From: Octopus vulgaris
Lineage: Eukaryota
DNA: 64,000 nt
NCBI GenBank assembly: GCA_951406725.2
Contig: OX597823.1
Location: forward strand, 52,452,001 to 52,516,000
Direction: 5' to 3'
In this document: piece after piece, positions 49,948 to 50,699 of the stretch
Layout: each line of letters begins with the position of its first letter
Position numbering within the stretch: the first letter of the stretch is position 1
The notes under the pieces: generated by a model
The model's database searches: none
What the model was told of the DNA's origin: nothing
What the model saw: the letters and a program-made list of their open reading frames with translations, nothing else
Program-made: the position numbers and the translations under genes

Positions 49948-50293
49948 CTTCTAGGATATAATTCAAAAGTAATTCAGCTGCTATTTTCAGCAGGTTTTGT
50001 AACCACATTAACTATCCCATGCTGGTTCTAGTTTTGTTGTTAATATCAGTTGAGAGTAGGTATCAAAAAGTTTCATTCTCTCAAAGACTCATATCAAGTT
50101 TCCATTAATTTTTGTTGGAAGAAAGAACTAATCCAGTAATGGCTTCTAATACCATTCATATTGATTTCTAACACAAGCTACTGGGAATCAACTAATACAA
50201 TAATGCATATTATTTCTGCATTATCTTATGTCGATGGTATATGTTTGAAGTTGAACATATTTTCTATAATAATGAAAACAGGTACATATTGTA

Positions 50294-50622
50294 CAGTTCT
50301 ATATAACCACTACACCATATGCTCACAGGCATATGGTGTAGTGGTTAAGAGTGCGGGCTACTAACCTCAAGATTCCGAGTTCGATTCCAAGCAGTGACCT
50401 AAACAATAACAATAATAACAATAATAATAATAATAATAATGATAATAATAATAATAACAATAATAATGACATCGAAAAATACCTTAGGAATGAGAACCCA
50501 GGTTCAAAATTTCCCCAAGACACCTGAAGAAGACTAGAGGGTATATCAGCTGAAATGTGTTAACAGCAAACGAGATGAGGACAAATATCCGTCGAATGTA
50601 AATAATGTAAATAATGTAAATA
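50294..50622 (+). mobile_element. Family H hammerhead SINE with a 14-bp flanking direct repeat and a 5' inverted segment; ribozyme degenerate
   Basis: Head GGCATATGGTGTAGTGGTTAAG...GAGTTCGATTCC, (AAT)n, GACAC-CTGAAGA...GAAA-TGTGTT (CGT missing) at 50519-50561, (ATGTAAATA)3. AGGTACATATTGTA at 50280-50293 and 50623-50636. Confidence 0.85.
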
Positions 50623-50699
50623 AGGTACATATTGTATCTCTAAGTTTTATGATTTTATAGAATTAAAGTGTTGTGTTGCCTTGCAAAGAATGTGGTGAT

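Follow-up and report, generated by a model that had tools for sequence, protein, structure and literature searches.

A tRNA-headed, hammerhead-bearing repeat of Octopus and the case for its insertion by a Penelope-like enzyme

Which enzyme places a short, non-coding repeat into octopus DNA, and can a single insertion scar point to it? The window analysed here is a 64,000-nucleotide stretch of Octopus vulgaris DNA (contig OX597823.1), in which the interval 50280..50636 is one copy of an abundant Octopus repeat family. The family order is a tRNA-like head, an (AAT)n microsatellite and a minimal hammerhead of the type found in Penelope-like elements (PLEs). SINEs are normally defined as LINE passengers. 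A first-pass annotation had read the folded-back 5' junction of this copy as the record of template switching during insertion, more like Penelope integration than LINE target-primed reverse transcription. We consider it probable that a PLE enzyme made the insertion in trans, with both target strands serving as primers on the SINE RNA. That the repeat constitutes a true tRNA-headed, Pol III-driven SINE family parasitising PLEs, not LINEs, is about an even call. Coordinates refer to the forward strand (+) unless marked (-).

The family is dispersed and of high copy number, with three copies in 64 kb and 18,697-23,546 contigs aligned per run in three runs. The second copy in the window (37127..37443, -) has a full head, a plain 5' junction, an intact hammerhead core and the full tail; the third (37805..37968, -) is 5'-truncated, with an intact hammerhead core and the full tail. 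The tails of both copies (37162-37127 and 37840-37805) extend 36 nt past the point at which the focal copy meets its right junction. The second and third copies have private variants in common and the same downstream flank, which derives from another abundant repeat; they are probably a single insertion that was duplicated together with its flank. The 3' half of the third copy (37967-37809, -) also contains a 53-codon frame with one stop, and the 36-nt tail at 37162-37127 (-) opens on an ATG and stays free of stops over 12 codons. These frames could each be a trace of the start of a partner ORF. Loose ends at the 3' side of the family show low agreement in the runs (0.40-0.48), which suggests mixed family ends.

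The tRNA-like head of the focal copy (50327..50400) has an A box at 50334-50344 and a B box at 50379-50387, at tRNA positions 8 and 53 counted from 50327, and both boxes are present in the 37443 copy. ARAGORN made no tRNA call in the head, and Rfam had none. The first run of four T's in the sense strand lies at 50645, consistent with Pol III transcription. The (AAT)n microsatellite at 50405..50467 (37299-37364 in the second copy) separates the head from the 3' half. Elsewhere in the window, at 2572-2731, (TAT)n directly adjoins (AAT)n in an inverted microsatellite junction whose flanks lack family sequence. None of the listed ORFs of 110 aa overlaps the element.

Translated with read-through of its stop, the third copy agrees at 32 of 36 positions with the N-terminal 36 residues of a predicted Octopus sinensis protein, from which it follows that the repeat family occurs in Octopus. 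Residues 1-36 of this protein (LOC115224785 isoform X2, P0002) correspond to a translated piece of the family that includes the hammerhead region, and the start of LOC115224785 is an exonisation or a mis-annotation. A pattern scan found no family copies in either of two metagenome searches (0 and 0) or in viral contigs (0). One match among prokaryote genomes, in a Psychrobacter record, was taken as chance.

All of the features named in the first-pass annotation are present where it placed them. The 14-bp direct repeat that flanks the insert is exact (50280-50293 and 50623-50636, both +), and a third occurrence of the 14-mer is absent from both strands of the window (1.3e-8 per position by composition). 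Directly inside the left repeat, 50294..50303 (-) holds the final 10 nt of the family 3' tail in inverted orientation. Its reverse complement, described earlier as close to the family 3' terminus, agrees with that terminus at 9/10 positions in both other window copies and at 10/10 with the loose-end line at 50623 in run X6; the chance of such a match at a fixed place is 2e-6. Given the mechanism set out below, this segment likely represents the beginning of a cDNA for which the top target strand served as primer.

After the tail piece come the initial 19 nt of the head in inverted orientation (50304..50322, -), the exact reverse complement of 50329-50347 across a 6-nt loop. Among perfect inverted repeats of at least 14 bp with a loop of at most 10 nt, low-complexity sequence excluded, this hairpin is unique in the 64 kb. 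The loop (50323..50328, no strand assigned) is the hinge of a head-to-head palindrome and lies 1-2 bases upstream of tRNA position 1. It reads TCACAG here and CCATGG in many other copies, so that the focal loop is an altered palindromic hinge with three transitions (3/6 positions) relative to the family.

At the right end, three 9-bp tandem units (50595..50622) reach the junction, and the final 36 nt of the family are absent beyond them, a truncation that had gone unremarked in the first-pass annotation. A poly(A) end is lacking; the family instead terminates in unique sequence that lies 36 nt beyond the tandem units. The microhomology reported for this junction holds, since the target 14-mer matches the element's own continuation at 8 of the first 9 positions and at 11 of 14 overall. 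Of random 9-mers from the window, 1.7% match as well anywhere within the final 60 nt. Nowhere else in the focal copy does the inverted 10-nt terminus occur, because the tail is missing from it.

We examined the locus in aligned DNA runs. Of the 24 listed runs, 21, spread over six organism labels, contain the stretch in whole or in part, and four of the 24 (X2, X3, X6 and X21) were aligned to 49980-50700. The alignment evidence consists of the 24 listed of 64,701 pieces and the 18 listed of 763 loose-end rows; for the raw reads of X21, two aligned. In X6 (organism C), exactly one record crosses both ends of the stretch, with a depth of 36.6 in each flank, and its left piece stops at 50279. A difference at 50657 sits 35 letters from the end of a piece and coverage is full to 50700, which places the start of the right piece at 50623. 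From these coverage tables, one X6 contig appears to join the two flanks over a single 14-mer, as expected of an orthologous empty site. The search for such a site in related genomes, proposed in the first-pass annotation, has thus succeeded in a related species at the level of coverage tables, and the site so inferred confirms the 14-bp repeat as a true target-site duplication. It is possible that the X6 state reflects a later precise loss in organism C. As to age, the focal copy differs from the read majority at nine listed element positions and the hinge base, and its flank differs from X6 at 6 of 300 positions, an estimate confounded by subfamily variants and CpG decay.

Just to the right of the insertion, an array at 50704-50948 has a 26-bp minisatellite in common with a second array at 48404-48523. 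The window also contains remnants of Mariner/Tc1-type transposases at 13101-13490 (+) and 57264-57686 (+), with Pfam matches to Transposase_1 (E 7e-12) and DDE_3 (E 1e-6).

The focal copy carries a decayed minimal type I hammerhead at 50519..50561 (+), with helix I at 50519-50523/50557-50561, the core at 50524-50530, an extra A at 50531 and GAAA at 50552-50555. The loss of CGT from stem III that had been noted here is genuine, and helix II has two substitutions (50533 and 50536). With CGT and two pairs of helix II gone, the focal copy does not take the hammerhead fold, and its ribozyme is likely dead. The lowest-energy folds of the other two window copies do have the hammerhead shape, with helices I and II of 5 and 6 bp. 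These intact copies have an extra A after the core (between 9 and 10.1) and a palindromic AACGTT that replaces stem III. PLE hammerheads are described as having a short helix I, a base between 9 and 10.1, a G10.1-C11.1 pair and a palindromic stem III (PMC4209133). Such a PLE-type hammerhead is found in two of the three window copies, the focal one being decayed; C11.1 is the majority base in reads, with T in the window copies. Compared with shuffled sequences, the hammerhead fold has no added stability (z -1.0). Rfam gave 0 matches at the gathering score, and neither a tRNA nor a hammerhead was among the 11 and 7 weak matches of two further Rfam scans. Weak Rfam matches to miRNAs were set aside as a mere reflection of the hairpin. 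A dimer of the hammerhead folds 4 kcal/mol below two monomers, but without stem III pairing. A loose match to the hammerhead core near 8532 (-), with a stem of only 3 bp, is probably chance.

The resemblance to Penelope in the first-pass annotation draws support from the hammerhead type, the 36-nt optional tail, the head-to-head palindrome and the absence of poly(A). PLEs have an optional tail of 30-40 nt, an inverted copy adjacent to the 5' end and head-to-head palindromes at junctions (PMC3846280, PMC8557442). In rotifer PLEs, the inverted pLTR comes with an optional tail, junction palindromes and duplications of 8-10 bp (PMC3846280). A purified lizard PLE cuts and extends both target strands, and it initiates at two positions that delimit the 30-40-nt tail (PMC11167929). 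Hammerhead activity is dispensable for PLE insertion in vitro (PMC11167929), and PLEs make up 6.83% of the O. vulgaris genome (PMC13282606). Several observations count against the PLE reading. Among them, the purified enzyme starts without target homology (PMC11167929), whereas the focal junction has microhomology, and the 14-bp duplication is longer than the 8-10 bp of rotifer PLEs.

The element is not itself an autonomous PLE, as it contains no ORF with a telomerase-like reverse transcriptase and a GIY-YIG endonuclease. Neither the 64-kb window nor a protein search yielded an autonomous PLE with the 3' half in common; in the protein search, the one match among three candidates was the exonised copy. 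A decayed GIY-YIG-like frame at 46286-46654 (+), with a Pfam E of 0.03 (below the cut-off) and GIY-YIG neighbours in the atlas (score 0.95), is probably the remnant of a Penelope-like element; it has no DNA in common with the SINE.

In the established geometry of target-primed reverse transcription, a duplication of 14 bp means that two 3' overhangs of 14 nt were left. We propose that Pol III would transcribe the element from its A and B boxes, and that both target strands would be cut 14 nt apart to leave two 3' overhangs. The bottom-strand end would prime internally, at the tail's inner edge 36 nt short of the family end, aided by the 8/9 microhomology, and would copy the RNA to its 5' end. 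The top-strand end would prime at the tail's outer edge, adding 10 nt. The 5' end would then be copied twice, through self-priming of the cDNA or joining of cDNA ends, to give the head-to-head palindrome, and the inverted arm would be reduced to 10 + 19 nt by a copying jump or by later deletion between short matching words in head and tail. The point of the jump from tail to head lies near a TTAA word common to both and near a 7-nt complement between head and tail. In the RNA this complement pairs with a probability of only 0.04, and it serves as a lead to what may have caused the jump. The origin of the family itself probably lies in a tRNA SINE whose (AAT)n tail received a truncated PLE end. 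Of the template switch proposed in the first-pass annotation, the origin at the time of insertion stands, given the empty site and a tail piece without a local source. A switch alone is insufficient, however, and two priming events are needed because the main cDNA lacks the terminus seen at the left junction.

An inversion by itself is not diagnostic of a PLE. The family could be an ordinary LINE-dependent SINE, its junction made by LINE twin priming and its hammerhead carried as a passenger, as in the schistosome Sm-alpha; we regard this as unlikely. The 14-bp duplication and the primer microhomology are compatible with LINE biology, and the variable 9-bp tandem units close to the 3' end look like the product of slippage as in LINEs. 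In LINE-1 twin priming, as here, both target ends prime and the product has an inverted segment and a target duplication. However, LINE-1 starts at poly(A) and normally makes no palindromic duplication of its own 5' end, whereas the octopus family ends in unique sequence beyond its tandem units. Among somatic human L1 insertions, 29.5% carry a twin-priming inversion (PMC10191854; also a bioRxiv paper), and RTE, CR1, Dong-R4 and L1-Tx1 elements are active in Octopus (PMC13282606). Against this, twin priming alone gives no 5'-end palindrome, L1 fold-backs amount to 0.3% and copy target DNA (PMC10191854), and the hammerhead belongs to the minimal PLE type. A short frame at 30820-31188 (-), between (TAT)n arrays, may by eye resemble the end of a LINE with a restriction-like endonuclease.

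The fold-back is not confined to the focal locus. Among the 24 listed pieces, four derive from other loci; their gap-free alignments begin at 50304 in two cases and at 50296 in the other two, with 12-13 differences. The two that start at 50296 are probably one orthologous locus in X2 and X3. X6, which lacks the focal insertion, still has about 130 single-copy-equivalent positions of depth within 50280-50304. Loose ends before 50328 finish in ATGCCCATG in 87 contigs of X3 and 85 of X6, and ATGCCCATG with the head forms a palindrome centred on CATG. At 50327, G instead of A accounts for 60-67% of depth. Depth at 50327 is 14-16% of that at 50337, which is not a clean frequency of the fold-back. 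Thus the fold-back marks a subset of family copies. The first-pass annotation had staked its reading on the other copies not being uniformly plain; fold-backs occur at other loci, and some copies, such as that at 37443, are plain.

This recurrence opens a second alternative, which we find quite improbable: the inverted tail-plus-head block was inherited from a read-through master copy and is uninformative on the focal insertion event. In its favour, alignment as far as 50296 is seen at a second locus in two species (X2 record 2, X3 record 10), and a minority T occurs in both arms (at 50337, C has about 78% of depth), as from a single template. But the left junction falls exactly at the family 3' terminus, where random 5' truncation would rarely land, and arm lengths seem to vary, at about 9-11 nt in loose ends and at least 19 nt in listed pieces. 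Moreover, the structure of the master would itself still require a PLE-type origin.

A hairpin formed after a plain insertion, by a local template switch in replication or by DNA repair, is very unlikely. The two arms are identical at 19/19 positions while the loop is off the family hinge at 3/6, a combination with p ~0.004 at an assumed 6% decay, and later hairpin-linked editing of the focal site is plausible. However, the inverted 10-nt terminus has no local template, as the tail is absent, so later local slippage is not its source and a late origin is largely excluded for the tail piece; the same hinge also recurs at other loci. Hairpins are prone to fold-back artefacts, but an assembly or library chimera has a negligible chance of explaining the structure, since contigs of single-copy depth cross the left junction in two runs that bear different organism labels (X2 record 1 and X3 record 9, which refute the artefact). 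X2 (organism A) record 1 covers 49980-50344 with one difference, and X3 (organism B) records 9 and 16 together cover the left and right junctions. The insertion structure is real, well preserved and common to two organism labels.

Returning to insertion by a PLE enzyme, the octopus element is like the endonuclease-bearing PLEs (Penelope/Poseidon, Neptune, Naiad) and their pLTR derivatives in having a minimal type I hammerhead near the 3' end (PMC4209133). It is also like PLEs in its optional tail, inverted 5' copy and head-to-head palindrome (PMC3846280, PMC8557442), and in its short target duplication and AT-rich target (PMC3846280, PMC8557442, PMC11167929). Unlike them, it has no ORF, is about 300 bp long and has a tRNA-like head with A and B boxes in place of the pLTR promoter. 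Its inverted copy is only 10 + 19 nt, and it differs further in the 14-bp duplication and the microhomology at the internal start.

The schistosome Sm-alpha and Sj-alpha repeats are likewise tRNA-derived, short and of Pol III type, with a type I hammerhead (PMC2770079, PMC6765202). Their hammerheads are canonical (PMC4209133) and often in tandem (PMC6765202), whereas the octopus family has the minimal type, is dispersed and has a PLE-like tail. The excerpts consulted describe no PLE-type junctions for Sm-alpha. Metazoan non-LTR retrozymes are also non-coding hammerhead repeats for which PLEs have been proposed as movers (PMC7761336, PMC7229834). Retrozymes are tandem, promoterless and based on circular RNA, whereas the octopus focal copy is monomeric and has A and B boxes, and thus falls outside the retrozyme definition. 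The non-autonomous Chlamys PLE derivatives (MRC1) are also non-coding, passengers that share 3' ends with autonomous PLEs (PMC8557442). MRC1 belongs to green algae and to a clade without canonical hammerheads, and the excerpt mentions no tRNA head (PMC8557442).

The octopus family may already have been named elsewhere (Repbase, Dfam, SINEBase or the 1994 octopus SINE paper). Ohshima and Okada (1994) reportedly described the octopus SINEs OK, OR1 and OR2 as tRNA-derived retroposons, and the present family may be one of them. OR2 has been termed a CORE-SINE (PMC4758252). We found no description of an octopus hammerhead SINE or of a PLE-dependent SINE in the open-licence literature, and the excerpted 2026 repeat annotation of O. 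vulgaris mentions neither hammerhead nor ribozyme (PMC13282606). The ingredients are each already known; what would be new is a tRNA-headed SINE moved by a PLE.

On its own, the single focal junction is a neat but expected PLE-type scar. If our reading of the family is correct, a high-copy tRNA-headed family moved by PLEs would widen the definition of a SINE, and part of the large 'unclassified SINE' load of octopus genomes would have been assigned the wrong assumed partner. Thousands of short copies would then record both priming sites, together with a hinge at a defined RNA start. The origin of PLE inverted repeats and of the optional tail is described as unresolved (PMC8557442, PMC3846280). 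If the reading holds, a sense transcript could be enough for PLE palindromes to form, with no need of the antisense template that has been proposed for rotifer Penelopes. Because the family is about 300 bp long, has a single promoter direction and would offer numerous orthologous empty sites, genomes alone would allow this question to be tested.
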